The translations under genes and the position numbers were made by a program. Below are positions 5,881-56,381 of a stretch of DNA of 64,000 bases, piece by piece. The stretch lies in the NCBI GenBank assembly GCA_965220325.1, contig OZ244821.1:3037924-3101923 (forward strand). The letters run 5' to 3'. Every line of letters starts with the position of its first letter. Position 1 is the first letter of the stretch. The stretch comes from Candidatus Poribacteria bacterium. Lineage in GTDB: Bacteria; Poribacteria; WGA-4E; WGA-3G. The notes beneath the pieces were generated by a model that did not search any database, had not been told where the DNA came from, and saw nothing but the letters and a program-made list of their open reading frames with translations.

Positions 5881-8800
5881 TTGCTATTGACAAACAAAAA
5901 ATGTATCGTATCAATTTTCCTAACCACTTTTATAGTTTTTTTAACACATATATCCGGTTACGCAGATATAACCCCTGTCCAGGATCGCACACCACAGATC
6001 CGGGATGCGATTGTTGCCGCAGTGCCAGGTGTTAACAGTGCCAACGATGTCACCGCAGCACACCTCGCAGCCATTGCAACCCTGGAGGCTTCCAATAAGT
6101 CAATCAGTGCTTTGAAAGCTGGAGATTTCGATGGCCTCACCGCGCTGACAACGCTCGATCTGTCTCGCAATACCATCAGCGATATATCTCTGCTTGGGAG
6201 CTTGACTGCACTGACGGCACTCGAACTGTCTCAGAATGCCATCACTGATATATCTGTTCTTAAGAAATTGACGAAACTCAGATGGCTCTTTCTATCTCAT
6301 AATGCCATCAGCGATATATCTCCGCTTAAGAACTTGACTGCACTGAAACATCTCTGGCTCGGTGGCAATGCCATCAAAGATATATCTGCGCTTGAGAAAT
6401 TGACGAAATTGAAAAAACTCTGGTTGTCTCGCAATGCTATCAGTGATATATCTGTGCTTGAGAAATTGACACCACTGACAGCACTCTGGCTGGATGGTAA
6501 TGCTATCAGCGATGTATCTGCGCTTGAAGGTCTAATCTCGTTAGTGAGTTTAAATCTCAGTGGCAATCCGATTTCGGATTACGGTCCGCTGCGTAGACTC
6601 AAAACCGCCAATCCGGATATAACCATTGATATTGATATTGATGAGAATGATAATAGCGCGCCTGTATTCACCGCTGGCAGTAGCACGACGCGGTCTGTTG
6701 CGGAGAACACGGCTTCCGGCACAAACATCGGCAGTGCGGTATCCGCGACAGATACCGATAATGATACCTTAACCTATACGCTGGGGGGTACGGATGCGGC
6801 TTCGTTTCGTATTGTTTCGACCTCGGGACAACTCCGAACCAATGCTGCACTGGATTATGAAACGAAATCGTCCTACTCCGTGACTGTCTCCGTTTCTGAT
6901 AGTAATGGTGGCAGCGATAGCATTCCTGTCACGATCAGTGTGACGAACGTCAACGAAGCACCTAACTTCGCCAGCAGCACCGCGACGCGTTCGATAGCAG
7001 AGAACACGGCATCTGGTACAAATATCGGGACTGCTATTACTGCGACAGATGTGGATACCGGCGATACACCAACCTATACACTGGGTGGCACGGATGCGAG
7101 TTCGTTTAGCATCGTCAGCACATCCGGTCAACTCCGAACCAACGCTGCATTGAATTATGAAACGAAATCGTCCTATTCCGTGACGGTCACTGCCAGGGAT
7201 GCGGGTAACCTCTCGGATACGATCAGTGTCACAATCAGCATCACAGATGTCAACGAGGCACCCAACTTCGCAAGCAGCACAGCGACGCGTTCGATAGCAG
7301 AGAACACGGCATCGGGACAAAACATCGGAGCTGCTGTGGCAGCGACAGATGTTGATGGCGACACCCTCTCCTATACGCTCGGTGGCACGGATGCGAGTTC
7401 GTTCAGTATCGTCAGCACATCCGGTCAACTCCGAACGAGTGCGGCTTTGGACCGTGAAACAAAAGCCTCCTACTCCGTGACAGTCACTGCCTCCGATGGG
7501 AGTCTATCGGATACGACCACCGTCACGATCAGTGTGACCAACGTCAACGAAGCACCTAACTTCGCAAGCAGCACAGCAACACGGTCCATAGCAGAAAACA
7601 CCGCCTCCGGTCAAAACATCGGCACCGCTCTCACTGCGACAGACCCAGATGGCGATACACTCTCCTATACGCTGGGTGGCACGGATGCGAGTTCGTTTAG
7701 CATTGTGTCCAATTCCGGTCAACTCCGAACGAGTGCGGCTTTGGACCGTGAAACAAAAGCCTCCTATTCCGTGACAGTCACTGCCTCCGATGGGAGTCTG
7801 TCGGATACGACCACTGTCACGATCAATGTGACGAACGTCAACGAAGCACCTGTATTCACAGAAGGTAGCACAGCGACGCGTTCGATAGCGGAGAACACGA
7901 CTTCCGGCACAAACATCGGAGCTGCTGTGGCAGCGACAGATGTCGATGGTGATACCCTCTCCTATACACTCGGTGGCACGGATGCGAGTTCGTTTAGCAT
8001 CGTCAGCACGTCTGGTCAACTCCGAACCAGTGCGGCTTTGGACCGTGAAACAAAAGCCTCCTACTCTGTGACAGTCACTGCCTCCGATGGGAGTCTGTCG
8101 GATACGACCACTGTCACGATCAATGTGACGAACGTCAACGAGGCACCCACTTTCGCAACTACCACAGCAACGCGCTCGGTCGCAGAGAACACGGCAGCCA
8201 ATCAAAACATCGGCGCAGCTTTCACCGCAACGGATGTCGATAGTGGGACTACGCTCACCTATTCGATCCCTACAACCGGGGATGCCGCAGCCTTCAGCAT
8301 CGTCAGCAATACAGGGCAACTGAAAACAAAGAATACCCTGAACTATGAAGTTAAAAACGCCTATACGGTTGTTGTGACGGCTTCCGATGGAAGTTTGACC
8401 GATACGATCACCGTCACGATCAGTGTCACAAACGTCAATGAGACACCGACGTTTGCTACCGGAACAACCATCAGTAGTATTTCTGCCACCAAAGGAACGG
8501 CAATCACCTCCGTGACCTTGCCAGCAGCAACGGACCCTGACGCGAACACTACTATCACATACACGGTGACACCGACACTCCCCGCCGGGTTGACATTTAC
8601 GCCTTCAACGCGTATCCTCTCAGGCACACCTACGGCTGTGTCGGCTTCAGCGACTTATACCTATACGGCGAGTGATAGCAACCTTTCAGACACTTTGACG
8701 TTCACAATTCAAGTGAACGCGCCTGCTAACAACGCACCGACGTTCACGGATGGCACCAGCACGACGCGCTCGGTCGCAGAGAACACCGCTTCAGGGCAAA

Positions 8801-11800
8801 ACATCGGCAGTGCCGTCGGCGCAACCGATACGGATAACGACACGCTCAGCTATACCCTCGGTGGCACCGATGCCGCATCTTTCAGTATCGTCAGCACGAC
8901 AGGACAACTCCAAACCAACACTGCCCTAAATTACGAAAGCAAGTCGTCTTATTCTGTGTCAGTGTCTGTCTCTGATAACAACGGCGGCAGCGATAGTATC
9001 GCTGTCACGATCAATGTGACGAACGTCAATGAGGCACCAAGTTTCGCAAGCACCACTGCGACACGTTCGATAGCAGAGAACACCGCAGCCAACACAAATA
9101 TCGGCGCGGCTGTTGCTGCGACAGATGTCGATGGCAACACCCTCTCCTATACACTGGGTGGCACGGACGCAAGCTCATTTAGCATCGTCAGCACGTCTGG
9201 TCAACTCCGAACCAGTGCAGCCCTGGACCGTGAAACAAAAGCCTCCTATTCCGTGACGGTCACTGCCTCCGATGGCAGCCTGTCGGATACGACCACCGTC
9301 ACAATCAATGTGACGAACGTCAACGAAGCACCTAACTTCGCGAGCAGCACCGCAACACGCTCCATAGCAGAGAACACCGCCTCCGGTCAAAACATCGGCA
9401 CTGCCGTTGCGGCGACAGACCCAGATGGCAACACCCTCTCCTATACACTGGGTGGCACGGATGCGAGTTCATTTAGCATCGTCAGCACGTCTGGTCAACT
9501 CCGAACCAGTGCTGCTTTGGACCGTGAAACAAAAGCCTCCTATTCTGTGACAGTCACTGCCTCCGATGGGAGTCTATCGGATACGATCACCGTCACGATC
9601 AATGTGACGAACGTCAACGAGGCACCTAACTTCGCAAGCACCACAGCAACACGCTCTATAGCGGAGAACACGGTTTCCGGTCGAAACATCGGGACTGCCG
9701 TCGCCGCAACGGATGTTGACCATACTTCACTTACCTATACGCTGGGTGGCACGGATGCGAGTTCGTTTAGCATCGTCAGCACGTCCGGTCAACTCCGAAC
9801 CAGTGCAGCCCTGGACCGTGAAACAAAAGCCTCCTATTCTGTGACAGTCACTGCCAGGGATGCGGGTAACCTCTCAGATACGATCACCGTCACGATCAAT
9901 GTGACGAACGTCAACGAGGCACCAAGTTTCGCAAGCACCACAGCAACACGCTCCATAGCGGAGAACACGGTTTCCGGTCGAAACATCGGGACTGCCGTCG
10001 CCGCAACGGATGTTGACCATACTTCACTCACCTATACTTTGGGTGGTACGGATGCGAGTTCGTTTAGCATCGTCAGCACGTCTGGTCAACTGCGAACCAG
10101 TGCGGCTTTGGACCGTGAAACAAAAGCCTCCTACTCTGTGACAGTCACTGCCAGGGATGCGGGTAACCTCTCGGATACGATCACTGTCACGATCAATGTG
10201 ACGAACGTCAACGAGGCACCAAGTTTCGCAAGCACCACTGCGACGCGCTCTATAGCAGAGAACACGGTTTCTGGTCGAAACATCGGGACTGCCGTCGCCG
10301 CAACGGATGTTGACCATACTTCACTCACCTATAGTCTTGGTGGCACGGATGCGAGTTCATTTAGCATCGTCAGCACGTCTGGTCAACTGCGAACCAGTGC
10401 TGCTTTGGACCGTGAAACAAAAGCCTCCTACTCTGTGACAGTCACTGCCAGGGATGCGGGTAACCTCTCGGATACGATCACCGTCACAATCAATGTGACG
10501 AACGTCAACGAGGCACCGAGTTTCGCAAGCACCACAGCAACACGCTCCATAGCGGAGAACACGGTTTCCGGTCGAAACATCGGCACTGCTGTATCTGCGA
10601 CAGATGTTGATGGCAACACGCTCACCTATAGTCTCGGTGGCACGGATGCGAGTTCGTTCAGTATCGTCAGCACATCGGGTCAACTCCGAACGAGTGCAGC
10701 TTTGGACCGTGAAACAAAAGCCTCATATTCTGTGACAGTCACTGCCAGGGATGCGGGTAACCTCTCGGATACGATCACCGTCACGATCAATGTGACAAAC
10801 GTCAATGAGGCACCAAGTTTCGCAACTACCACCGCGACGCGCTCGGTCGCAGAGAACACGGCAACCAATCAAAACATCGGCACAGCTCTCACCGCAACGG
10901 ATGTCGATAGTGGCACCACGCTCACCTATTCGATAGCGACAACCGGGGATGCCGCAGCCTTCAGCATCGTCAGCAATACAGGGCAACTGAAAACAAAGAA
11001 TACCCTGAACTATGAAGTTAAAAACGCCTATACGGTCGTTGTGACGGCTTCCGATGGAAGTTTGACCGATACGATCACCGTCACAATCAGTGTGACAAAC
11101 GTCAATGAGGCACCCACTTTCGCAACTACCACCGCGACGCGCTCGGTCGCAGAGAACACGGCAACCAATCAAAACATTGGCACGGCTCTCACCGCAACGG
11201 ATGTTGATAGTGGCACCACGCTCACCTATTCGATCCCGACAACCGGGGATGCCGCAGCCTTCAGCATCGTCAGCAATACAGGGCAACTGAAAACAAAGAA
11301 TGCCTTGAACCATGAAACAAAAGCCTCCTATACGGTCATTGTGACGGCTTCCGACGGAACTTTGTCAGATACCATCACCGTCACGATCAGTGTCACAAAC
11401 GTCAACGAAGCACCGAGTTTCAGCACTTCGGGGAGGGTCACGCTCTCCGTCGCAGAGAACACGGCAGCCAACACCAACATCGGCACCCCCTTCCAGGCAA
11501 CAGACCCCGATAGTGGGGATACAGTGACCTATTCGCTGCAGCGAGCCGATAAGACCTCGTTCCGTATTGACGCAAATACGGGGCAGCTGAAAACCCACGC
11601 GGCACTTGACTATGAAACGAAAAATTCTTACAGCAATCTCGCCGTCCGCGCGGCTGATAGCGGGGGTCTCGTCAGTAGCGTCCTTGTCACTGTCAACGTT
11701 ACAAATGTCAATGATAATTCCCCCGTGTTCACGGAGGGTGCCAGCACGACGCGGTCTATCGCAGAGAACACGGATTTCGGCACAAACATCGGAACTCCGG

Positions 11801-14778
11801 TCGCTGCGACGGATGCCGATAATGATACCCTCAGCTATACACTGGGCGGCACGAATGCATCCTCATTTTACATTATTGGCACATCCGGGCAGCTGAGAAC
11901 AGGCTCCGTCGCCTTGGATTATGAAACGAAATCGTCCTATTCGGTCACGGTCAACGTTTCTGATGGCAACGGTGGGAGTGATAGTATCGCTGTCACCATC
12001 AACGTTACAGATGTTGATGAATCGCCTGCAAACAGCGCACCGACCTTCACGGATGGCACCAGTACCACACGCACTGTTGCGGAGAACACCGCTTTAGGCA
12101 CCTACGTCGGAAGTGCGGTTGCTGCGACCGTTGCGAATAACGCCACACTCACCTATACGCTGAGTGGCGCGGATGCGGCCTCGTTTAGCATTGGCAGTGC
12201 CTCCGGGCAGATCCAAACAAATGCTGCCATGGATTATGAAGTCAAGAATTCCTACACCGTCACGGTTGACGTTTCTGGTAGCAATGGCGGGAGTGACAGT
12301 ATCACCGTCACCATCAATGTTACAGATGAAGCCGAATCCCCGATAGCACCGCCGCTCAGTGACCGCACGCCACAAGTGCGCGCTGCGATTGTTGCTGCAG
12401 CACCAGGCGTTAGCAATGTTGCTGATGTGACCGTAGCACACCTCGCAGCGATTGCCTCCCTGAATTTGTCGAATAGGTCAATCCGTTCTCTAAAAACTGG
12501 GGATTTCAATGGACTCACCGGAATGGGAGCACTCGATCTGCATCTCAACTCGATCAGTGATATATCTGCCCTGAGTGGATTGACCCAACTGAGACATCTT
12601 GATCTGGGCTTCAATTCGATCAGTGATATATCTGCCCTGAGTGGCATGACCTCAATGGTCAATCTCAGTCTGCTTAACAATTCGATCAGTGATATATCTG
12701 CCCTGAGTGGCATGACTTTGATGACAAGTCTCGGTCTGTCTAACAATTCGATCAGTGATATATCTGCCCTGAGTGGCATGACCTTGATAGACACTCTCAA
12801 TCTAACGAACAATAACGTTACGGATGTATCTGCCCTGAGTGGCATGACCTCGCTATTCATCTTATCTGTCGCAGGGAATCCGATTTCGGATTATGGTCCC
12901 CTCCGGACCCTCAAGGCAGCAAATCCGAATGCCCGCCTTGATATTAGCCTTAATAACAACCCACCCGTCTTCACTGAAGGCACCAGTGCCACGCGGTCTA
13001 TTGCAGAGAATACGGCATCTGGCACAAACATAGGCACTGCGGTTGCTGCGACCGATGCGGATAACCATACCCTTAGATATAGTTTGGGTGGCACGGATGC
13101 GGCTTCGTTCAGCATTGTCAGCACATCAGGACAGCTCCGCACAAATGCTGCCCTGGATTATGAAACGAAGTCCTCTTATGCTGTAACAATCACCGTTTCT
13201 GATGGAAATAACGGGGGTGATAGTATCAGCGTCACCATCAATGTTACAGATGTAGTTGAGCATGACCCCGTGTTCACGGATGGCGACACCACGACGCGGT
13301 CTGTTGCGGAGAACTCCGGTAGAGGCACCAACGTCGGAACTCCGGTGGCTGCGACCGATGCGAATACCGGCGACACACTCACCTATACGCTCGGTGGCAC
13401 CGATGCCGCATCGTTTAGCATTGTCTCCACATCCGGGCAGCTCCGAACCAATGCTACTCTGGATTATGAAACCAAGAGCTCCTACACTGTCACGGTTGAC
13501 GTTTCTGACGGTACTGGCGGGAGTGACAGTATCACCGTCACCATCAATGTTACAGATGTCGAGGAATCCACGATAACACCTGTAAAGGATCGCACGACGC
13601 AGGTACGGGATGCGATTGTTGCTGCGGTGTCAGGCGTTAGCAATGCTGACGATGTGACCGAAGCACACCTCGCAGCGATTACAGAATTGAATCTCGGATC
13701 AAAGTCAATCACTACGCTGAAGGCTGGCGATTTCAGTGGACTCACCGGACTCGAAACGCTCTATCTGGACAGCGAGTCGCCCAGTGATACACATAAAAAT
13801 TCGATCAGTGATATATCACCCCTTGAAGGCTTGACTACCCTGACAAGGCTCAATCTGCTTTACAATTCGGTCAGCGATATATCTGCGCTGAGTGGCATGA
13901 CTTCAATGAGCCAGCTTAATCTGGATAACAATTCGGTCAGTGATATATCTGCCTTGAGTGGCATGACTTCAATGACCATTCTCAGTATGAAGAACAATAA
14001 CGTTACGGATGTATCTCCCCTGAGTGGCATGACCACGATGTTCATCTTATCTGTCGCAGGGAATCCGATTTCAGATTACGCTACCCTCCGGACACTCCAG
14101 GCACATTCGCTTTGGGTACTTGATATTAGTCTTAATAACAACCCACCGACGTTCACCGATGGTGCCACCACCACGCGCTCGGTCGCCGAGAACACGGCAG
14201 CGGGACAAAACATCGGCAGTGCAGTCTCTGCGACGGATGCGAATAACCATACGCTCACCTATAGTCTCGGTGGCACGGATGCGGATTCGTTTAGCATCGT
14301 TTCCACCTCCGGGCAGCTCCAAACCAAAGCAGCACTCGACTATGAAACGAAGAACAGCTATACGGTAACAGTGACTGCTTATGACGGCAATAACGGTGGG
14401 GACAGAATCACCGTCACGATCAATGTCACCGACGTAGCAGCTGCTGCACCGGTTGTGCTAACACCGCCAGCACCCGTGCTGCCGAACACAACCGAGTTGC
14501 TGACAAACTTCCCGAACCCGTTCAACCCGGAGACGTGGATACCGTATCAGCTCGCCAAACCGGCAGATGTGACGCTAACCATCTACGATATCCGCGGTCG
14601 TATCGTGCGGACGTTGCGATTAGGGCACCAACCTGCAGGTTTCTACCAGAATCGGAGCAAGGCAGCGCATTGGGATGGACGAAATCATCTCGGTGAAAAG
14701 GTCGCCACAGGCGTGTATTTCTACACCCTCAAAGCCGGCGATTACATGGCAACCCGCAAGCTCTTGATACGGAAATAG
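5881..14778 (+). CDS. Giant secreted surface protein (2965 aa): signal peptide, 3 leucine-rich-repeat modules, about 25 cadherin-like repeats, C-terminal T9SS-type (Por_Secre_tail-like) sorting domain
   Basis: TTG start 8 nt after AAGGAG. The N-terminus is hydrophobic. LxxLxLxxNxISDIS 22-residue LRRs occur at aa 70-230 and again near nt 12360-12960 and 13560-14130. Each LRR module opens with DRTPQIRDAIVAAxPGV. There are about 100-aa repeats ending in NVTNVNEAP with TDVDGD calcium-binding-like motifs. The C-terminus GVYFYTLKAGDYMATRKLLIRK matches the T9SS C-terminal domain pattern. Confidence 0.9.
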   Translation: MLLTNKKCIVSIFLTTFIVFLTHISGYADITPVQDRTPQIRDAIVAAVPGVNSANDVTAAHLAAIATLEASNKSISALKAGDFDGLTALTTLDLSRNTISDISLLGSLTALTALELSQNAITDISVLKKLTKLRWLFLSHNAISDISPLKNLTALKHLWLGGNAIKDISALEKLTKLKKLWLSRNAISDISVLEKLTPLTALWLDGNAISDVSALEGLISLVSLNLSGNPISDYGPLRRLKTANPDITIDIDIDENDNSAPVFTAGSSTTRSVAENTASGTNIGSAVSATDTDNDTLTYTLGGTDAASFRIVSTSGQLRTNAALDYETKSSYSVTVSVSDSNGGSDSIPVTISVTNVNEAPNFASSTATRSIAENTASGTNIGTAITATDVDTGDTPTYTLGGTDASSFSIVSTSGQLRTNAALNYETKSSYSVTVTARDAGNLSDTISVTISITDVNEAPNFASSTATRSIAENTASGQNIGAAVAATDVDGDTLSYTLGGTDASSFSIVSTSGQLRTSAALDRETKASYSVTVTASDGSLSDTTTVTISVTNVNEAPNFASSTATRSIAENTASGQNIGTALTATDPDGDTLSYTLGGTDASSFSIVSNSGQLRTSAALDRETKASYSVTVTASDGSLSDTTTVTINVTNVNEAPVFTEGSTATRSIAENTTSGTNIGAAVAATDVDGDTLSYTLGGTDASSFSIVSTSGQLRTSAALDRETKASYSVTVTASDGSLSDTTTVTINVTNVNEAPTFATTTATRSVAENTAANQNIGAAFTATDVDSGTTLTYSIPTTGDAAAFSIVSNTGQLKTKNTLNYEVKNAYTVVVTASDGSLTDTITVTISVTNVNETPTFATGTTISSISATKGTAITSVTLPAATDPDANTTITYTVTPTLPAGLTFTPSTRILSGTPTAVSASATYTYTASDSNLSDTLTFTIQVNAPANNAPTFTDGTSTTRSVAENTASGQNIGSAVGATDTDNDTLSYTLGGTDAASFSIVSTTGQLQTNTALNYESKSSYSVSVSVSDNNGGSDSIAVTINVTNVNEAPSFASTTATRSIAENTAANTNIGAAVAATDVDGNTLSYTLGGTDASSFSIVSTSGQLRTSAALDRETKASYSVTVTASDGSLSDTTTVTINVTNVNEAPNFASSTATRSIAENTASGQNIGTAVAATDPDGNTLSYTLGGTDASSFSIVSTSGQLRTSAALDRETKASYSVTVTASDGSLSDTITVTINVTNVNEAPNFASTTATRSIAENTVSGRNIGTAVAATDVDHTSLTYTLGGTDASSFSIVSTSGQLRTSAALDRETKASYSVTVTARDAGNLSDTITVTINVTNVNEAPSFASTTATRSIAENTVSGRNIGTAVAATDVDHTSLTYTLGGTDASSFSIVSTSGQLRTSAALDRETKASYSVTVTARDAGNLSDTITVTINVTNVNEAPSFASTTATRSIAENTVSGRNIGTAVAATDVDHTSLTYSLGGTDASSFSIVSTSGQLRTSAALDRETKASYSVTVTARDAGNLSDTITVTINVTNVNEAPSFASTTATRSIAENTVSGRNIGTAVSATDVDGNTLTYSLGGTDASSFSIVSTSGQLRTSAALDRETKASYSVTVTARDAGNLSDTITVTINVTNVNEAPSFATTTATRSVAENTATNQNIGTALTATDVDSGTTLTYSIATTGDAAAFSIVSNTGQLKTKNTLNYEVKNAYTVVVTASDGSLTDTITVTISVTNVNEAPTFATTTATRSVAENTATNQNIGTALTATDVDSGTTLTYSIPTTGDAAAFSIVSNTGQLKTKNALNHETKASYTVIVTASDGTLSDTITVTISVTNVNEAPSFSTSGRVTLSVAENTAANTNIGTPFQATDPDSGDTVTYSLQRADKTSFRIDANTGQLKTHAALDYETKNSYSNLAVRAADSGGLVSSVLVTVNVTNVNDNSPVFTEGASTTRSIAENTDFGTNIGTPVAATDADNDTLSYTLGGTNASSFYIIGTSGQLRTGSVALDYETKSSYSVTVNVSDGNGGSDSIAVTINVTDVDESPANSAPTFTDGTSTTRTVAENTALGTYVGSAVAATVANNATLTYTLSGADAASFSIGSASGQIQTNAAMDYEVKNSYTVTVDVSGSNGGSDSITVTINVTDEAESPIAPPLSDRTPQVRAAIVAAAPGVSNVADVTVAHLAAIASLNLSNRSIRSLKTGDFNGLTGMGALDLHLNSISDISALSGLTQLRHLDLGFNSISDISALSGMTSMVNLSLLNNSISDISALSGMTLMTSLGLSNNSISDISALSGMTLIDTLNLTNNNVTDVSALSGMTSLFILSVAGNPISDYGPLRTLKAANPNARLDISLNNNPPVFTEGTSATRSIAENTASGTNIGTAVAATDADNHTLRYSLGGTDAASFSIVSTSGQLRTNAALDYETKSSYAVTITVSDGNNGGDSISVTINVTDVVEHDPVFTDGDTTTRSVAENSGRGTNVGTPVAATDANTGDTLTYTLGGTDAASFSIVSTSGQLRTNATLDYETKSSYTVTVDVSDGTGGSDSITVTINVTDVEESTITPVKDRTTQVRDAIVAAVSGVSNADDVTEAHLAAITELNLGSKSITTLKAGDFSGLTGLETLYLDSESPSDTHKNSISDISPLEGLTTLTRLNLLYNSVSDISALSGMTSMSQLNLDNNSVSDISALSGMTSMTILSMKNNNVTDVSPLSGMTTMFILSVAGNPISDYATLRTLQAHSLWVLDISLNNNPPTFTDGATTTRSVAENTAAGQNIGSAVSATDANNHTLTYSLGGTDADSFSIVSTSGQLQTKAALDYETKNSYTVTVTAYDGNNGGDRITVTINVTDVAAAAPVVLTPPAPVLPNTTELLTNFPNPFNPETWIPYQLAKPADVTLTIYDIRGRIVRTLRLGHQPAGFYQNRSKAAHWDGRNHLGEKVATGVYFYTLKAGDYMATRKLLIRK

Positions 14779-14788
14779 TTGTCAGTTA

Positions 14789-15084
14789 TTGTAAAGCCCG
14801 AAAATAGGTTGACATTTACCAAATCTCCAGATTCCCCCCTGATAAGGGGGGTTAGGGGGGTTCTACCGATTAAGGTGTCCAATTAATTATGGATTTCACT
14901 ATAAGAGGGAAACTTATCAATTACATTTCCCTCTTATTGTAAAGCCCGAAAATAGGTTGACCTTTACCGAATCTCCAGATTCCCCCCTGATAAGGGGGGT
15001 TAGGGGGGTTCTACCGATTAAGGTGTCCAATTAATTATGGATTTCACTATAAGAGGGAAACTTATCAGTCACATTTCCCTCTTA
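14789..15084. repeat. Two tandem copies of a 156-bp unit. Each contains CCCCCCTGATAAGGGGGGTTAGGGGGG and a 10-bp-stem hairpin AAGAGGGAAA-N16-TTTCCCTCTT.
   Basis: Read from the sequence immediately 3' of the giant gene stop. The copies differ at about 4 positions. They are related to the repeat at 2261-2401 by the C5-TGATAA-G5-TTAGGGGG core. Confidence 0.85.
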
Positions 15085-15375: not shown

Positions 15376-15404
15376 TTGACAAAATGGCGATGGTGTGTGA
15401 TAAT
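15376..15404 (+). promoter_or_regulatory. Sigma70-type promoter with extended -10: TTGACA-17 bp-(TGt)GATAAT
   Basis: -35 TTGACA at 15376-15381, 17-nt spacer, TG at 15396-15397, GATAAT at 15399-15404. It lies about 65 nt upstream of the ATG at 15472. Confidence 0.6.
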
Positions 15405-15471
15405 GCTATTGCTGAAAAGGATTTATATGCTGTGTGTACCTGAGAATCGGACATATAACAGGGGGGAACAG

Positions 15472-17214
15472 ATGGCTAACGAACTGATGACGAACGAAGA
15501 GAATTACGCTTTTGATGTGGCGGGCTACCTACACATTCCGGGCGTTCTCAGTCAGGAAGAGGTAGCAGCACTCAACGAGGCATTAGACGCATTTGGTGAG
15601 AGTGAAACGCTGTTAGGCGGCGACAGTCCACACCGCGAATTGTTCCGCGATTTACTGGTACATCCGACATTGGTGTGGTATTTGAACCAGATCATCGGAC
15701 ACGGCTTCCGACTCGATCAGGCACCCCGATTGTTGGGACAGCGAGAAGGTGAAACCGGTCTAACACTCACTGGCGGCGATGAACCGAGAAACCCGTCCTT
15801 AGCATACCGCATACAAAAGGATAGGAGAAGCTGCCAAGGCGTGAAAGCGGTCTGGGCGTTGGACGACATCACAGAAGACGATGGTGGACTCGTCGTTGTT
15901 CAGGCGAGCCATAAGAGTAATGTCGAGACACCGAACGACTTGGCAACCGGCGTTGACGATATGGACGTAGTCGTGCATCCGGAACTCAAGGCAGGTGATC
16001 TATTCTTGGTTGCGGTACCTACGCTCCAAGGCGTTCGTCCGTGGAAAGACGAGCCGAAAAGGTTGTTGAGCTACTGGTACGCCGCGCGTGCAGCAATCCA
16101 ATCGAATCCAGTTGGACCTTACTCGGAAACCGCATCTCTGCCGGGATGGGCAGATGAAGCGACACCTGCGCAAAGGGCGGTCCTGTATGTCCCCGGTTAT
16201 AAGGGTTCAAGTCCACCACCGGTGATAGATACAGACGGCGAAGAGACATGGGTGGAAGAAGATTCGTCTGTTGTTCATCCGTCAATTTATATGCGCGACC
16301 CGAATTCAGGCATCGATGAGAAAGAGTTTTACTTTTGGGATCTAAATGGGTATCTCGTGGTGCGCGGTGTGATGGATGAGCAGTGGTTGGCAGAGGCAAA
16401 TGAAGCGGTGGATAAATTCCAAGATCGCATCGTTGTCGGCAGTGAACTGGCGGGTGGATCGGTCAGCCAAGCCGGTACAGGTCGTCCCCTCCTATCGGGG
16501 CTGTTAAGCCTACCCGACCCTTATAACGAACCCTTCCGACGCATGATTGCGCACCCTACTGTGGTGCAGCGACTCAACTGGATGGGCGGTAGCGGCTATC
16601 GCACGGGTGGCGCGACTGTATTCTGTGCGGTTGAAGGCACGTCAGGGCACTCACTCCACGACGGCAATGAACCGATGAGTCCATCACGGGGTTATGATTT
16701 CAAAAATGGACGCAGCTATGCTGAGACCGTCACGATTACCTGGCAATTGCGCGATGTCGAACCTGGGCTCGGCGGTTTCGCCTGTGTACCCGGTTCCCAC
16801 AAGACGCAGTACTCGATGCCACGCGGCATTCGGACGTGTGATGATACGATGGGGTTAGTGGTACAACCGGTTATGAAAGCCGGGGACGTGCTTTTCTTTA
16901 TGGACGGCGGTTGCACACACGGTGCCTTGGCGTGGAAGAATCCGATCCCCAGACGTGGGGTCCTGATTAAGTATCAGTCGAAAAATGTCAATTGGGGCGG
17001 CGGTGTGATTGATCCTCAGGACCGGTGGGGCGATATGGTCGAAGATATGACCGAGGAACAATTCGCTGTCATGCGTGGACCCGAACGCGACGGTCGCCAC
17101 CGGACTGTACCGAGACTGGTTGTGGAAGACGGAGAGGTGTTCGTTTCCTACGATCCTGAAGGCGATAGTTATGCCTCAAAGCATCGCCGCAAACCGGGTG
17201 AAAAACGAGGGTAA
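15472..17214 (+). CDS. Tandem-domain phytanoyl-CoA dioxygenase (PhyH) family protein (two PhyH-like halves)
   Basis: ATG at 15472 is preceded by GGGGGGAACAG. The N-terminal half starts MANELMTNEENYAFDVAGYLHIPGVLSQEEV. The second half restarts with EKEFYFWDLNGYLVVRGVMDEQW and has a conserved His (CVPGSHK). The ORF track's longer start at 15376 overlaps the promoter and was not used. Confidence 0.65.
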   Translation: MANELMTNEENYAFDVAGYLHIPGVLSQEEVAALNEALDAFGESETLLGGDSPHRELFRDLLVHPTLVWYLNQIIGHGFRLDQAPRLLGQREGETGLTLTGGDEPRNPSLAYRIQKDRRSCQGVKAVWALDDITEDDGGLVVVQASHKSNVETPNDLATGVDDMDVVVHPELKAGDLFLVAVPTLQGVRPWKDEPKRLLSYWYAARAAIQSNPVGPYSETASLPGWADEATPAQRAVLYVPGYKGSSPPPVIDTDGEETWVEEDSSVVHPSIYMRDPNSGIDEKEFYFWDLNGYLVVRGVMDEQWLAEANEAVDKFQDRIVVGSELAGGSVSQAGTGRPLLSGLLSLPDPYNEPFRRMIAHPTVVQRLNWMGGSGYRTGGATVFCAVEGTSGHSLHDGNEPMSPSRGYDFKNGRSYAETVTITWQLRDVEPGLGGFACVPGSHKTQYSMPRGIRTCDDTMGLVVQPVMKAGDVLFFMDGGCTHGALAWKNPIPRRGVLIKYQSKNVNWGGGVIDPQDRWGDMVEDMTEEQFAVMRGPERDGRHRTVPRLVVEDGEVFVSYDPEGDSYASKHRRKPGEKRG

Positions 17215-17235
17215 CGAATCGGTCCACGGTTTTGA

Positions 17236-17265
17236 TCTTCGGATGGGTTGGAAGATTGGAAAGGG
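17236..17265 (+). promoter_or_regulatory. 29-bp element TCTTCGGATGGGTTGGAAGATTGGAAAGGG containing the direct heptad repeat TTGGAAG-A-TTGGAAA. A near-identical copy lies upstream of clpP.
   Basis: Matches 55646-55674 at 28 of 29 positions. Confidence 0.5.
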
Positions 17266-17271
17266 CATCGT

Positions 17272-17633
17272 ATGAAACATAATAAAGTGCAATGGGAACG
17301 GATGTTTCCTGACGAATTAGAAGCGGCGTTGGAGGCGTGTCCGATGGTGTATCTACCTTCAACGCGTCCTCCAGCCGCCGCGTCGGGGAACAGATGGTGG
17401 CAGATATTGTGGCGCATTTCGGGGAAAAGACGAAAGAATTGCTATCGGCATACAAAACGGAGGTGACGAATCATACGCCACTGACGTTTGACGATGTAGA
17501 AGGGATTTGGGAAGCCGAGATCCGACCGAAGTTGGCTGAATTCGCTTCCTTGCAACCCCCCGAACCGGCACCGCCATCCGATTCTCGATGGTATCCGAAC
17601 TCGCAAGTCCCTAAGAAAGGGCGGATACTTTAA
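17272..17633 (+). pseudogene. Two short overlapping ORFs in different frames (17272-17466 and 17337-17633). They may be a frameshifted gene remnant or non-coding.
   Basis: No single frame gives a convincing protein. The ORFs have atypical composition, and the region is flanked by repeat elements. Confidence 0.2.
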
Positions 17634-17660
17634 CAACATTAGGATTCACGTCTTCTATCT

Positions 17661-17765
17661 TAAAGTCCCCCTGATAAGGGGGATTTAGGGGGTTTAGATA
17701 AGGGGATTTAGAGAGTTTAGATAAGGGGATTTAGGGGGTTTAGATAAGGGGATTTAGAGGGTTTA
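17661..17765. repeat. Palindromic repeat family copy: TAAAGTCCCCCTGATAAGGGGGATTTAGGGGG followed by three degenerate 22-bp units TTTAGATAAGGGGATTTAGRGRG
   Basis: Read from the sequence. The core is shared with 2261-2401. Confidence 0.85.
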
Positions 17766-17780
17766 TCGGAGTCTATCAAT

Positions 17781-40387: not shown

Positions 40388-41263
40388 ATGAGAGACTATT
40401 ACGAAATCCTCGGCGTAGATCGAGGTGCTACTCCAGAAGAAATCAAAAAAGCCTATCGCAAACTCGCGGTCCGGTACCATCCAGACAAAAATCCTGGCGA
40501 CAAAGCGGCAGAAGAGAAATTCAAAGAGGCATCGAACGCGTATTCAGTGCTCTCTGACCCGGAAAAGCGACGCGTCTACGATACACGCGGGCACGCTGGC
40601 GTTCACGGGATGGGATTTGAAGGCTACCAGAATATGAACGACATCTTCACGCATATAAACTTGGACGATCTGCTCGGTCGCGGGTTCGGTGGCTTCGGCG
40701 GGTTCGGTAGATTCGACGACGCGTTCGGTGATGCCTTCGGACAGCGGCGCGCAACGACGCCGACTCGTGGACGCGACATCCGTATGAACCTAAGCGTTCC
40801 ATTCACAGATGCCGTATTAGGTGGAAAGAAAGAGGTAAACGTGCAAGGAAAACGGATCACGCTCACGATTCCGCCCGGGATACAGGACGGGAAAACGCTA
40901 CGTATCCGCGGACACGGAGAGACACATCGCAGCGGTGTCGCTGGGGACCTGTTGGTGACGGTCGCTGTCCAGCCGCACCCGACACTGATACGTGATGGCG
41001 CGGACCTCTTGACGGATGCAAAGATATCCATGACAACGGCAGCATTAGGTGGTTCCGTCCGGGTGAAGACGTTAACGGGTGATGTGGATTTAAAGGTGCC
41101 GGCGGGTGCGCAACCCGGGCAACAACTCCGTCTACGTGGACAGGGTGCAACAGATGCCTCCGGACGAAAAGGCGATCTGCGGGTCCGGTTGGTCGTGGAG
41201 ATTCCGAAATCGCTGTCCCGTAAACAGCGAAACCTCCTGAAAGAGCTCGACAAGACGCTATGA
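40388..41263 (+). CDS. DnaJ-class J-domain chaperone without a zinc-finger domain (CbpA-like type II)
   Basis: J domain DYYEILGV...YHPDKN. A G/F-rich linker [13 protein letters not shown]-terminal DnaJ_C beta domains. No CxxCxGxG repeats. Confidence 0.8.
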
Positions 41264-42219
41264 GAACAACATCTTCTGAATCCGATGCTCCACAATCATC
41301 AAGTGGACAATTTGATACTGTATCAAAACGCATTATTCAACAAGATCCGGAGGACTGGGTCCGGTTTGTGCTCGGCATACCCGAGGCTAAGGTTATTGAG
41401 ATTTTAGATACGGAGCAGCCGACTGTTAGAGGACATCGTGCCGACAGTTTTATACGTGTGGATATCCTCGGTCAAGAGGCTATCATGCATTTTGAGTTTC
41501 AGACGCGCGATAGTACGCTGATCCCGATGCCATACCGTGTGGTAGGCTACGCTGGTAGAGGTATTGAAACTTTTCAAATACCTGTCTATTCGCATGTTAT
41601 CTATCTGCATCCGGATGCTGGACGCAATGATCCAGGGGAATACATCCAAGACATGCCGGGGCATGAAATTACGATCAAATATAAGGTGATTAGACTCTGC
41701 AAAATTAAAGGACAAGACGTTTTGGATGCGAAATTGAAGGGGTTAATTCCTTTCGCACCGCTGATGAAGTCACCAGAGGCAATGGATTCTAATGAATGGT
41801 TGCGAGAGTGTATCCGGGTCGCTGATACTTTACCTATGGATGAACCGGATAAACCTGATTATCTTGCAAGTTTGGCGATTTTGGGTGGTTTAATATTGGA
41901 CTATCAAACCATTCGTGGAATTATATCGGAGGAAACTATGTACGAATCATCTGTTATTCAACACTTCACGGAACAAGGCATTGAACAAGGCATTGAACAA
42001 GGCATTGAACAAGGCATTGAACAAGGCGAAAGAAAGGGTGTTCTTGAATCTCTGCTGGATATATTAGAAAGTCAGTTTCAGCATAGTGAGGTGCAAACAC
42101 TAAAGCCGACACTCGAGCGTATTGAGGAATTACAGGACCTCAGGCAATTGCTGCGTGAGGCACTTCAAGTGAAAAGCCTTGATGAATTCAAAACCCTTTT
42201 GGCATCAAATGGAAGTTGA
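41260..42219 (+). CDS. Rpn-family recombination-promoting nuclease / putative transposase (PD-(D/E)XK, YhgA-like) with a C-terminal DUF4351-like region
   Basis: HFEFQTRD ... [11 protein letters not shown]-terminal pattern of the Transposase_31/Rpn family. The C-terminal (EQGI)n plus helical tail resembles DUF4351. Confidence 0.55.
41971..42027 (+). repeat. Perfect 12-bp tandem repeat (GAACAAGGCATT) x4.75 inside the Rpn-family gene, encoding (EQGI)n
   Basis: Read from the sequence. Confidence 0.9.
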
Positions 42220-51698: not shown

Positions 51699-51774
<76 letters not shown>

Positions 51775-51797
51775 TCAAAATGGAACATTTAACACGA

Positions 51798-51871
<74 letters not shown>

Positions 51872-51904
51872 GTTTTCATATTGTTGATGGCAGCATTAAA
51901 ATAT

Positions 51905-51978
51905 GGTGGATGTAGCTCAGGGGTAGAGCACTTGACTGTGGATCAAGTGGTCGTGGGTTCAAATCCCATCATCCACCC
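51905..51978 (+). tRNA. tRNA-His (anticodon GTG)
   Basis: Acceptor GGTGGAT/ATCCACC. Anticodon stem CTTGA/TCAAG with loop CTGTGGA. T-loop GGTTCAAATCC. Confidence 0.85.
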
Positions 51979-51984
51979 TCATGA

Positions 51985-52057
51985 GCGTCCGTAGTTCAAT
52001 GGATAGAGCAATAGTCTTCGGAACTATAAGTTGGGGGTTCGAATCCCTCCGGACGCG
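51985..52057 (+). tRNA. tRNA-Arg (anticodon TCG)
   Basis: Acceptor GCGTCCG/CGGACGC. Anticodon stem ATAGT/ACTAT with loop CTTCGGA. T-loop GGTTCGAATCC. Confidence 0.75.
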
Positions 52058-52113
52058 AATACTTATGGATGCCGAGCGGGCACTTCAAAAGCAGTATAGC
52101 AGAATGAGCAAGT

Positions 52114-52186
52114 GCGCCGTTAGCTCAATTGGCAGAGCATCTGACTCTTAATCAGGCGGTTGAAGGTTCGATTCCTTCACGGCGCA
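52114..52186 (+). tRNA. tRNA-Lys (anticodon CTT)
   Basis: Acceptor GCGCCGT/ACGGCGC. Anticodon stem TCTGA/TCAGG with loop CTCTTAA. T-loop GGTTCGATTCC. Confidence 0.75.
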
Positions 52187-52210
52187 TCGTCGATAACGCG
52201 GACAGAATTC

Positions 52211-52296
52211 GGGCGGGTGCTGGAATTTGGTAGACAGGATAGACTTAGGATCTATTGGGGTTACGCCTCGTGAGGGTTCAAGTCCCTCCTCGCCCA
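52211..52296 (+). tRNA. tRNA-Leu (anticodon TAG), class II with long variable arm
   Basis: Acceptor GGGCGGG/CTCGCCC (one G-U pair). Anticodon stem ATAGA/TCTAT with loop CTTAGGA. T-loop GGTTCAAGTCC. 86 nt. Confidence 0.8.
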
Positions 52297-53832: not shown

Positions 53833-53865
53833 TCTGCTCTGTGTCAATAGATACACGTAAGTTAT

Positions 53866-54144
53866 GGGTGTGTAAATATTTTGTCAATTGTCGTCTGAAT
53901 ACAAGTCGCTTATGGTATTTCTGCGGATTTCTTCAAGTCCGCCGCAAATCTCGGATTTTCACAAATTGGGAAATACTTGGCGATCGAGCTCGTTAGGGCG
54001 CAAGCTAACAGCATACGCTACAAAAGAGCAGTTCTTATCGAAGAGAGACTCTTAGGTTGTTGGGTTCGTTAGGGCGCAAGCTAACAGCGGACGCTACAAA
54101 AGATGATATGCTACAAAATCGCGCACCAAAAACTTTACACACTC
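53866..54144. mobile_element. MITE-like internally deleted derivative of the adjacent ISKra4-family IS (IS-end-like inverted repeats, no transposase)
   Basis: Left end GGGTGTGTAAATATTTTG resembles the IS left IR GGGTGTGTAAAGTTTTTGG. Right end CCAAAAACTTTACACAC equals the IS right IR. The interior contains two copies of CGTTAGGGCGCAAGCTAACAGC. Confidence 0.4.
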
Positions 54145-54153
54145 CTGCGATAC

Positions 54154-55594
54154 AGGGTGTGTAAAGTTTTTGGCAGCGTATTTTTGAAGATATGAGTTGA
54201 AGTTTGTCAATAAAAATGGTATCCTCTCGCAAAGATGATAAAGTTGAGTATCGTAAGGAGAAGATACCATGTCTAACATTGTAGCAGAAATTCAGCAAGA
54301 AATGGAAGATATTTTTCAAGAGTTAAGTGATACCGAGGACGTTTCGGTTTCGACCGTAGAGGCGCGTGTGTCTAAGGCTGCCGATTCTTGGGCACAAAGG
54401 TTATCCGAGTCGGTTCTATCAGAGACAGCGAGTTGTAAGGAGACATCGCCTGTGAGTGTTGCGTGTCCATCTTGTCAAGGGCATAGTCATAGGTATCGGT
54501 GCCGGGCGCGCAACTTCACGACGGTTTGTGGTGTTCTGCGTATCTCAAGATGGGCGTATAAATGTCAATGTGGTTATATTCATGTGCCTTGGGAGGCTAA
54601 GCAAGGGTTGAAAGGACGGTATACACAGGCGGTTGCCAAAGCGATGATGCGTGTCGCTGCACAGTTGAACTATCGTGCGGCGGCGGCGGAGTTGAAGCAT
54701 CAAGGCATTGAAGTGAGTCATACGACGCTGCATCAGAAGGTTCAGGAGTGGTCAGCAGGCGAAGTTATCTCTGATTATGTGGCATCGGAATGCTTGGAGT
54801 CTGATGCGCGTTGGTATGTCAGTTTTGATGGGTGCCACACGAACTCACCTGTCGGTTGGCAGGAGGTGAAAGTCGGGTGCATCGGTAAAGATTATCCGCA
54901 CCAGAACGCGACCTCGGTGATGAAAATCCGTCCACCGAGTCTCCGTTATATCGCTTCTCGGAGTTGTGCGTCGGATTTCGGAGAGCAGTTGTCTGCGTTA
55001 GCGACACAGACCGGTATTTATCAAGACGAAAAAACGATAGACACCGAAGAAGTCGTTGTTATCGGTGATGGGGCAGTGTGGATATGGAACTTGGCAGATG
55101 AACACTTCCCGGGTGCCACCGAAATCGTTGACTTTATGCATGCCAAGAAACATTTACATGATGTTGCCAAACTTGCTTTCGGCGAAGATGACTCAGACCG
55201 TGTAGAGACTTGGGTGCGGACAACCGAGACCCCCCTTTACAATGGAGAGACATCGCAAGTCGTCGCACGCATACGAGAGTTGGCAACAGAAAACCCAGCG
55301 ATAGGAGATGTCCTCGAAAAAGAAGTCCGCTATTTTCAAAAAAATGCTCATCGCATGCAATATCGGACGTTCAACGAAAAAGGCTATCAGATCGGCAGTG
55401 GTGTCATTGAGAGTGCTTGTAAACACGTCGTCGCTGAACGCTGTAAACAAGCAGGCATGCGATGGAGCACACCCGGGATAAATGCCATACTCTTTTGGCG
55501 ATGTTTGCTAAAGAATGACGCAGCAGATACTTATTGGGATACACAAACTATGCCAAACGCAGCATAAATACGCTGCCAAAAACTTTACACACCC
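54154..55594 (+). mobile_element. Insertion sequence of the ISKra4 family with about 28-bp terminal inverted repeats, inserted in the tig-clpP intergenic region
   Basis: Left IR GGGTGTGTAAAGTTTTTGGCAGCGTAT at 54154-54180 is the reverse complement of the right IR ATACGCTGCCAAAAACTTTACACACCC at 55568-55594. A single transposase ORF lies between. No clear target-site duplication. Confidence 0.75.
54269..55567 (+). CDS. ISKra4-family DDE transposase
   Basis: RBS AAGGAG. N-terminal Cys cluster (CPSCQGHSHRYRC). GDGAVWIWN ... DFMHAKKHLHD ... YQIGSGVIESACKHVVAERCKQAGMRWS motifs typical of ISKra4-type transposases. Confidence 0.7.
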   Translation: MSNIVAEIQQEMEDIFQELSDTEDVSVSTVEARVSKAADSWAQRLSESVLSETASCKETSPVSVACPSCQGHSHRYRCRARNFTTVCGVLRISRWAYKCQCGYIHVPWEAKQGLKGRYTQAVAKAMMRVAAQLNYRAAAAELKHQGIEVSHTTLHQKVQEWSAGEVISDYVASECLESDARWYVSFDGCHTNSPVGWQEVKVGCIGKDYPHQNATSVMKIRPPSLRYIASRSCASDFGEQLSALATQTGIYQDEKTIDTEEVVVIGDGAVWIWNLADEHFPGATEIVDFMHAKKHLHDVAKLAFGEDDSDRVETWVRTTETPLYNGETSQVVARIRELATENPAIGDVLEKEVRYFQKNAHRMQYRTFNEKGYQIGSGVIESACKHVVAERCKQAGMRWSTPGINAILFWRCLLKNDAADTYWDTQTMPNAA

Positions 55595-55645
55595 TAAGTT
55601 ATAAGTTATAAGTTAAGCAAGTTTCAATATTAAATAGATGTTTGC

Positions 55646-55674
55646 TCTTCGGATGGATTGGAAGATTGGAAGGG
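55646..55674 (+). promoter_or_regulatory. 29-bp element TCTTCGGATGGATTGGAAGATTGGAAGGG (direct heptad repeat TTGGAAG-A-TTGGAAG) about 105 bp upstream of clpP
   Basis: Near-identical to 17236-17265. Flanked by the palindromes GGATGG/CCATCC and GGAAGG/CCTTCC. Confidence 0.5.
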
Positions 55675-55778
55675 TTCCATCCTTCGCCCCTTCCATTTTT
55701 CCTGTTTGCCATCCTTCCTCAAAAGTTGAAATTTGTTCCTTAATATTGCTTAAACTTTAATTCGGATTGGAAATAAAG

Positions 55779-56381
55779 ATGAATCTTGTACCTGTCGTCG
55801 TCGAACAAACCGGTCGAGGGGAGCGCTCTTATGATATTTATTCTCGGCTACTTGAAGACCGGATTATCATGATTGGAACATCCATTGATGATGATGTTGT
55901 CGCGAGTCTTGTAACAGCACAAATGCTTTTCTTGGAGGGCAAGGACCCCGATGCGGATATCGTTCTCTACATTAACACCCCCGGCGGTTCCGTCTCCGCA
56001 GGATTGGCAATTTACGATACAATGCAGTACATCAAAGCAGATGTCCAAACTTGGTGTTTAGGTAGAGCTTATAGCATGGGTGCGGTTCTGCTTGCCGCGG
56101 GAGCACCGGGTAAACGCTACGCACTCCCTCACGCGAAAGCTCTCATTCATCAGCCGATGGCAACCGGTATCGCAGGACAAGCCTCTGATATTAGTATTCA
56201 CGCGAAAGAAATTTTACACGAACGAGATCGACTTTATGCTATTTTAGCCGAACATACCGGTCAAAATGTTGAGAAGATCTCTGTCGATGCTGATCGAGAT
56301 TTTTATATGACTGCGGATCAGGCGCTCGAATATGGACTCGTTGACCACGTTGTCGCGCAACGTGCCACACAGAGTGAATAG
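55779..56381 (+). CDS. clpP: ATP-dependent Clp protease proteolytic subunit
   Basis: Ser in [11 protein letters not shown], His in HQPM and Asp in DRDFYM form the catalytic triad. ATG at 55779. Confidence 0.9.

Follow-up and report, generated by a model that had tools for sequence, protein, structure and literature searches.

The 29-nt sequence that occurs twice in the window (the whole 64-kb stretch of DNA analyzed here) is an internal piece of a non-coding mobile hairpin element (MITE) of Poribacteria, ~140–160 nt in length. We are confident that this element is a non-autonomous MITE circulating in Candidatus Poribacteria, and thus a selfish repeat of an ordinary kind rather than the stress-gene operator that the original prediction had proposed. 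The family is previously undescribed, and the literature searched did not link Poribacteria and MITEs. The element is a non-coding near-palindrome in which a G-rich arm of 8-nt units pairs with a C/T-rich arm; it inserts at a TA dinucleotide and duplicates it, with the transposase presumably supplied in trans. One of the two window copies, complete apart from a shortened apex, landed in the tig–clpP spacer of this lineage. The other is a piece of ~37 nt from the interior of another member of the family, left or captured at a deletion junction where the LamG gene of relatives is missing and the adjoining creatininase gene has itself lost ~532 nt. The features discussed below are collected in Table 1.

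Table 1. Features of the window and of related poribacterial loci, with their positions and the evidence or context for each.
Feature	Locus	Position	Strand	Evidence or context
PhyH gene, double-domain	Window	15376-17214		Upstream of fragment; Pfam
Internal fragment of type-1 MITE	Window	17226-17262	+	Profile positions 26-68 only; nhmmer E 8e-8
29-mer copy 1, TCTTCGGATGGGTTGGAAGATTGGAAAGGG	Window	17236-17265		Sequence search of 64-kb window
Creatininase-family (PF02633) pseudogene	Window	17273-17633	+	Homologues and blastn to intact genes
Composite IS insertion, unrelated	Window	53866-55595	+	18 nt upstream of MITE left TA (20 nt from element start)
Left TA of target-site duplication	Window	55614-55615		Flank comparison; L005/L037 pair
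Complete type-1 MITE, internally shortened	Window	55616-55750	+	Profile match 55613-55754, nhmmer E 4e-39; aligned with four other genomes
29-mer copy 2, TCTTCGGATGGATTGGAAGATTGGAAGGG	Window	55646-55674	+	Within G-rich left hairpin arm; 8-nt units GGATGGA/TTGGAAGA/TTGGAAGG; inverted-repeat listing
C/T-rich right arm, CCCTTCCATTTTTCCTGTTTGCCATCCTTCC	Window	55688-55722	+	Pairs with G-rich arm
Right TA of target-site duplication	Window	55751-55752		Flank comparison; L005/L037 pair
clpP	Window	55779-56381	+	Pfam CLP_protease 5e-77; ATG 28 nt past element end, 26 nt past TA
Type-1 copy	L001			Before PhyH gene, adjoins another repeat; right end missing
Type-1 copy	L002			After glyA-folC
Type-1 copy	L003			Repeat-rich spacer near sulfatase gene
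Type-1 copy	L005			Before hisZ-hisG
Type-1 copy	L006			Between Fe/Mn superoxide dismutase gene and divergent gene
Type 2 element	L003	5279-5424	-	215 nt from type-1 copy
Type 2 element	L005	4804-4931	+	Adjoins type-1 copy

The Shared 29-mer

The two near-identical sites on which the original prediction was built were confirmed. A single G/A substitution and one additional A set them apart, which amounts to 2 mismatches over 29 positions in an ungapped comparison. With up to three mismatches, the 29-mer matched these two window sites only, compared with 0.00 matches expected from 100 shuffles. The 14-nt core alone (TTGGAAGATTGGAA) also occurs twice in the window, a count that is not significant, as 13 of 100 shuffles reach it. 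Significance rests on the full 29–36 nt and not on this core, and the likeness of copy 1 reaches upstream beyond the 29-mer, to ~17226 (profile match 17226-17268). The tandem period in the 29-mer region is 8 nt, with the unit ATTGGAAG present 3.1 times in full-length copies. The heptad–N1–heptad arrangement reported earlier is thus real in the sense of two units of this 8-nt tandem, but the spacing is not the 10 nt of an operator of that kind.

Borders, Anatomy, and Fold of the Element

The element has the consensus TTAAGCAAGTTTCAATATTAAATGGACGTTTTTGATCTTCGGATGGATTGGAAGATTGGAAGGTTGGAAGTGGGGAAGATAG...GGTTCTTCCATCCTTCCTGTTTTCCACCCTTCCTCAAAAGTTGAAATTTATTTCTTAATATTGCTTAAG, with the termini AGCAAG...CTTGCT, and forms an imperfect hairpin from end to end. 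Its length is 135–157 nt, or 142–161 nt including the TA flanks; full copies in other genomes span 154–161 nt. When copies of different genomes are compared, identity is 75–100% over the 40 nt at each end of the element and 17–35% (random) over the 40 nt outside. The borders are therefore sharp, with identity falling to background exactly at the termini. The terminal inverted repeat is imperfect: the tips AGCAA are perfect, ~13 of the 20 outermost positions agree, and pairing goes on inward, giving an RNAalifold consensus of 46 pairs from tips to apex. The left arm consists of a G-rich tandem of 8-nt units (TTGGAAGN), mirrored by NCTTCCAN units in the C/T-rich right arm.

For four of the five full copies, the + strand folds at -40 to -58 kcal/mol (z -3 to -6); the L002 copy is an exception (-34.7 kcal/mol, z -0.8), folding no better than shuffled sequence. 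RNA of the + strand, in which the G-rich arm comes first, is 7–14 kcal/mol more stable than that of the - strand on account of G–U pairs. No pair in the consensus fold displayed compensatory changes among the five sequences compared, which are similar enough to be uninformative in this respect. A search of the window against Rfam 15 returned only tRNAs at gathering score, and noise alone was obtained at E <= 10 on 55560-55800, which speaks against any known RNA family, 6S-like RNA included. The element carries no transposase gene, and its interior lengths (142, 154, 160, and 161) differ by non-multiples of 3. A coding role was considered and rejected: full copies have an ORF of ~40 codons, but its frame differs between copies, and the element is therefore non-coding. 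By the usual definition, bacterial MITEs are small, encode no transposase, end in inverted repeats, duplicate their target, form a stable hairpin, and occupy sites that are filled in some relatives and empty in others (PMC3184786). The present element shares their small size, terminal inverted repeats, target-site duplication, filled and empty sites, and stable structure.

Insertion at TA and a Second Subfamily

The TA dinucleotide stands on both sides of the complete window copy, of both elements in L005, and of the copies in L003 and L006. The locus L005 represents a filled site, ...ACCCT-TA-(type 1)-TA-(type 2)-TA-TGAAGATTAAG..., for which L037 provides the empty counterpart, ...ACCCT-TA-TGAAGATTAAG.... 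In full, L005 reads ...GGATGTACCCT-TA-(AGCAAG..type 1..TTGCT)-TA-(AGCAAT..type 2, reversed..CTTGCT)-TA-TGAAGATTAAGAATTTAATCGGG, and L037 reads ...GGATGTACCCT-TA-TGAAGATTAAGAATTTAATCGGG, with a single TA. On the hisZ side of this site, the HisZ proteins of L037 and L005 are 96% identical. As the empty site is base-exact, both elements must therefore have inserted at TA and duplicated it. TTAA was considered as the target duplication and rejected, for the empty site reads TTAT and only TA is exactly repeated three times in L005.

The type 2 element of L005 belongs to a second subfamily, which has the common termini (T)TAAGCAAGTTTCAATATTAAAT ... TTATTTAATATTGCTTAAG and an unrelated interior that holds a GGGCGGGGAAACCCCGCCCC hairpin. 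TA is duplicated as in type 1.

TA duplication is characteristic of IS630/Tc1-mariner transposition. This likeness suggests that the family may be mobilized in trans by a transposase of that type. A parent IS would have the terminal sequences AGCAAGTTTCAATATT...AATATTGCT, bounded by TA; a fuzzy terminus search of ~0.35–0.4 Mb of Poribacteria DNA gave MITEs only. The window's single IS ends differently (GGGTGTGTAAAG) and encodes a UPF0236/ISKra4-like transposase.

Copies in Other Poribacteria

An exact search with GGATGGNTTGGAAGATTGGAA across the GTDB set, one genome per species, produced seven hits. Five of these fall in four Candidatus Poribacteria MAGs, each inside the same discrete element, which marks the window itself as poribacterial. 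The remaining two, L004 and L007, come from a Hyphomicrobiales MAG and a Litoricola MAG; they match by chance within coding sequence and were discarded. Likewise, all eight matches from a metagenome scan for CGGATGGNTTGGAAGATTGG were chance matches in coding sequence of unrelated organisms (DGLEDW-like peptide). Viral contigs yielded no match to the left terminus and eight matches to the core, all by chance. The chromosome OX639973.1 bears two type-1 copies and one type-2 copy by exact-core retrieval; the window bears one full copy and one fragment. Foreign copies were retrieved only by exact core match, and the 1–2 exact-core copies found per complete genome are accordingly a lower bound. For the same reason, the invariance of the 29-mer among retrieved copies is an ascertainment artefact of the search pattern and was not used as evidence.

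The genes neighboring the copies (Table 1) are unrelated to each other. Five of six copies face a co-directional downstream gene, a bias that is not significant. Some observations sit less comfortably with a plain MITE, namely the lack of an autonomous IS with matching termini in the DNA searched, the low copy number (bearing in mind that it is a lower bound), the imperfect terminal inverted repeat, and the missing compensatory changes in a set of five sequences. In addition, the orientation of the copies and the more stable + strand RNA would also fit a role at the RNA level.

The 17.2-kb Fragment and the Creatininase Pseudogene

Termini and a right arm are both missing from the first window copy, which takes up most of the 58-nt spacer separating the stop codon of the PhyH gene (17214) from the ATG of the pseudogene (17273). 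In sequence, the fragment is nearer to the consensus and to the L001 copy (TTTTGATC, GGAAAG) than to the complete window copy (TTTGCTC, GGAAGG), which indicates that it is a remnant of another family member and not of the clpP copy. The last ~8–10 nt of 29-mer copy 1 (..GGAAAGGG) overlap the native creatininase leader of relatives (GGAGAAGG / GGAAGGA). Consequently, the fragment junction is ambiguous over ~8 nt, and the element-derived part covers about 17226–17262.

The region downstream was previously described as containing short, overlapping ORFs (17272-17633), and this description is correct. Searches of Pfam and PDB with the two ORF fragments alone gave no match; the family was found via homologues. 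In the pseudogene, ~29 N-terminal codons are followed, from ~17359 on, by the final ~90 codons in a different frame, and the joined translation matches poribacterial proteins with PF02633 at 74–97% identity. By blastn, window positions 17255-17359 correspond to L018 5984-6085 and 17358-17632 to L018 6618-6889; similarly, 17271-17359 corresponds to L028 778-866 and the second block to L028 1402-1683. Relative to these genes, 532–535 nt have been deleted internally from the window gene and its frame is shifted, which makes it a pseudogene. The related contigs are partly 2–3x long-read assemblies with frameshifts, as seen in the split tig of L008 and the split creatininase genes of L018 and L028. 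For this reason, only the large deletion in the window was counted as decay, and not the small frameshifts elsewhere.

In L018 and L028, an opposite-strand LamG gene lies directly upstream of the creatininase gene (~1.1 kb, versus 40 nt in the window), and no element sequence is found at the orthologous position in either. Exact-protein look-up with the window PhyH and LamG gave no record and yielded no strain-level relative of the 17-kb region. The simplest reading is that a MITE insertion was eroded by deletions that also removed LamG, or that a scrap of the element was captured in repair. The original prediction had suggested a decayed gene or a non-coding RNA under the same control as clpP. 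A decayed gene is indeed present, but shared control lacks support, since the element is absent upstream of the intact gene in relatives. The 17.2-kb copy is a scar in a decaying region and not a control site.

The clpP Copy and the tig–clpP Spacer

The second window copy lies in the gene order tRNA cluster, tig, clpP, clpX, lon. Six tRNA genes are clustered at 51699-52296 (+), directly upstream of tig. The copy has the termini AGCAAGTTTCAATATTAAAT ... TTAATATTGCT, lacks ~20 apical nucleotides, and folds at -39.7 kcal/mol (z -4.3). The composite IS insertion upstream comprises a ~280-nt IS-derived miniature (53866-54145, ends GGGTGTGTAAA...TTTACACAC) and a full IS (54154-55595) with 33-nt terminal inverted repeats and a 432-aa UPF0236/ISKra4-like transposase (54269-55567). 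It is bracketed by the 7-bp duplication AAGTTAT at 53859-53865 and 55596-55602. In the near-identical strains L008 and L009, which encode an identical ClpP, the unchanged element is present in a 209-nt tig–clpP spacer without the composite IS.

More distant relatives are different. No trace of the element was found in the tig–clpP spacers (118–243 nt) of L021, L023, L026, and L027, and a profile search of ~150 kb around these loci gave nothing at E <= 1. The Tig proteins of these four Poribacteria lineages are 92, 87, 85, and 82% identical to that of the window. In L021, the closest, both ends of the spacer align with the window, and the homology on the right starts at the TA beside the element: TA|AACTTTAATTCGGAT versus TA|AACATTAATCGGAT, with the pattern TA|AAC(T/A)TTAAT.CGGAT. 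L021 has ~80 nt of other sequence in the element's place and hence is not a clean empty site. Judged from these alignments, the comparison fits insertion of the element into the tig–clpP spacer in the window's lineage only, and the element is not a conserved clpP control region. Other long palindromes, with arms built from short tandem units (e.g., CAGTTNT / ACTGANN), occupy the tig–clpP spacers of L026 (11305-11424) and L027 (11305-11487). Hairpin repeats that are built alike and unrelated in sequence seem to have landed in this spacer repeatedly.

A promoter and terminator scan of 55400-55900 detected neither a sigma-70-like promoter nor, within the element, a terminator. Given the distance of 28 nt from the element end to the ATG, the clpP transcript would be expected either to start inside the element or to carry its hairpin in the 5' leader. 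The element may thus incidentally alter clpP expression. A stronger version of this idea is that, despite a mobile origin, the clpP copy, possibly along with others, has come to act in cis: as a hairpin in the 5' leader that affects stability or serves as an RNase site, or as a promoter donor. The position of the element in or at the transcript start speaks for such an exaptation, as do its unchanged presence in three strains despite the gain or loss of an IS 18 nt upstream of its left TA, the stability of the + strand RNA, and the five of six copies that face a co-directional gene. Moreover, such roles are documented for bacterial MITEs, e.g., Correia and ERIC (PMC3184786). However, no promoter or covariation was detected in the scan and the alignment described above, the orientation bias is not significant, and the interior has been freely deleted or altered between copies. 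We consider exaptation unlikely, though it fares best among the alternatives.

Regulatory Readings of the Repeat

A related proposal treats the G-rich arm, with its TTGGAAGN units, as a portable cis-regulatory module, i.e., a protein-binding array or a leader-RNA hairpin. If true, transposition would wire clpP, sodA, and hisZ into a common response, and the operator idea would be right in spirit; we judge this improbable.

The operator hypothesis itself, in which a repressor binding the direct TTGGAAG repeats would co-regulate clpP and the 17.2-kb locus, is harder still to sustain. Both window copies do lie upstream of, and co-directional with, the next ORF, and one foreign copy is found ~450 nt upstream of a superoxide dismutase gene. 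The 29-mer is also identical in all retrieved copies, although this identity is forced by the retrieval pattern. Against these points, the motif sits inside a mobile hairpin repeat with a TA duplication and an empty site, and its neighbors elsewhere are hisZ, folC, PhyH, and other unrelated genes. In four other Poribacteria lineages, no comparable sequence precedes clpP. The first window copy is followed by a pseudogene, and the motif is missing from relatives in which this gene is intact. Copies had been anticipated upstream of clpC, clpB, groES, or dnaK, and none stands beside these genes among the copies in the four Poribacteria MAGs. The suggested resemblance to CtsR operator architecture also breaks down: the period is 8 nt instead of 10, and the window contains no match to the CtsR box RGTCAAANANRGTCAAA with up to two mismatches, nor to the CIRCE/HrcA inverted repeat TTAGCACTC-N9-GAGTGCTAA with up to three. 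The original prediction named copies scattered inside coding regions as a sign of a repeat element; the copies are scattered and agree with this sign in substance, although they are intergenic and not inside coding regions. Taken together, an operator of a lineage-specific stress regulator is very improbable.

Least probable of all is a small RNA gene that each genome would carry once or twice (e.g., one for a long hairpin RNA resembling 6S), since the long closed hairpin of ~160 nt and the low copy number that would suit it are outweighed by the lack of an Rfam match even at E <= 10, the absence of synteny between genomes, the insertion polymorphism with TA duplication, the variable interior, and a sister family with the same ends and a different interior.

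Other Repeats in the Region

Beyond the MITE family, the region contains several other repeats. Another cross-genome repeat, a AAGTCCCCCTGATAAGGGGGATTTAGGGGG hairpin, has six window copies, including 2240-2388, 14808-15010, and 17640-17775, and is also found in L001 (~7500-7560), where it abuts the MITE copy. After the copy at 17640-17775 comes a 23-nt tandem array (GGGGATTTAGRGRGTTTAGATAA); compared with L028, this copy represents an insertion. A 2965-aa ORF at 5881-14778 combines leucine-rich-repeat blocks, ~20 near-identical cadherin-like repeats of ~99 aa (297 nt), and a Por-secretion-tail-like end; it is a typical 'eukaryote-like' repeat protein of sponge symbionts. Directly after this giant gene, at 14786-15081, a 148-nt unit is duplicated in tandem (97% identical), with each unit holding one CCCCCCTGATAAGGGGGG hairpin repeat. 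Inside the ORF at 41260-42219, a 12-nt in-frame tandem repeat (GGCATTGAACAA) of ~5–6 units extends over 41956-42027. Further small intergenic poribacterial repeat families were observed in L019 (5300-6000), L006 (1400-1800), and L003 (5430-5630). Examples include TATAAACAT(A/G)(C/T)CG(C/T)CCCTACGGG units and GGTGCGGTTAGGAAACCGCACC hairpins. In L019, small repeats replace the 5' half of a creatininase gene, beside DDE transposases.

Significance

The practical benefit is largely one of annotation: recognition of the repeat as a MITE avoids a false regulon call, accounts for two odd intergenic regions, and brings to light a pseudogene and a deletion scar. The analysis also adds an undescribed TA-duplicating MITE family, together with a same-ended sister family, to an uncultivated phylum of sponge symbionts whose genomes are crowded with small repeats. 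A MITE so close to clpP, next to a strain-variable IS, marks the tig–clpP spacer as an insertion hotspot. Strains with and without these insertions provide a natural comparison for clpP expression in Poribacteria symbionts, and the remaining interest lies in possible incidental effects on that expression, together with the small chance that the conserved G-rich arm is a regulatory module carried by a transposon.

Comparison With Known Systems

The CtsR operator, the box of the class III heat-shock repressor of Firmicutes, resembles the element in that a 7-nt word is directly repeated ahead of clpP. The operator has a 10-nt period, whereas the element has an 8-nt period and its motif lies in the arm of a mobile hairpin. 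Furthermore, a CtsR operator would be expected to hold a conserved position upstream of clp or other heat-shock genes across related genomes, and the element is not kept before clpP in sister lineages.

Closer parallels are found among bacterial MITEs. The Correia elements of Neisseria duplicate a TA target. Like the poribacterial element, these repeats (CREE/NEMIS) are non-coding sequences of ~100–160 nt with terminal inverted repeats, TA duplication, and a long hairpin. They often lie just 5' of genes, to which they can donate promoters or processing sites, and the element likewise lies 5' of clpP; the size, promoters, and 5' location of Correia elements have been reviewed (PMC3184786). There is no sequence similarity between the two, and Correia elements reach hundreds of copies, as opposed to the 1–2 exact-core copies per genome detectable here. 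In contrast to Correia, the arms of the element are composed of 8-nt tandem units, and no IHF site or promoter is known for it.

The ERIC and REP-BIME repeats of enterobacteria are, like the element, palindromes of an imperfect kind; they lie in intergenic regions that are transcribed, and they can influence the stability of mRNA. TA stands at the flanks of ERIC-type elements (PMC3184786). REPs are shorter (20–40 nt) and mobilized by RAYT, and the element does not carry their GTAG/CGTC tag.

RUP (the repeat unit of pneumococcus), Nezha of cyanobacteria, and other MITEs mobilized by IS630/Tc1-mariner transposases resemble the element in size (107–170 nt), terminal inverted repeats, and TA duplication. 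RUP and Nezha each have a known parent IS whose terminal repeats match their own; none was encountered for the element in the Poribacteria DNA searched. The mobility of Nezha was recognized from filled/empty-site polymorphism between close relatives (PMC3184786), which is the same kind of evidence as that provided here by L005 and L037.
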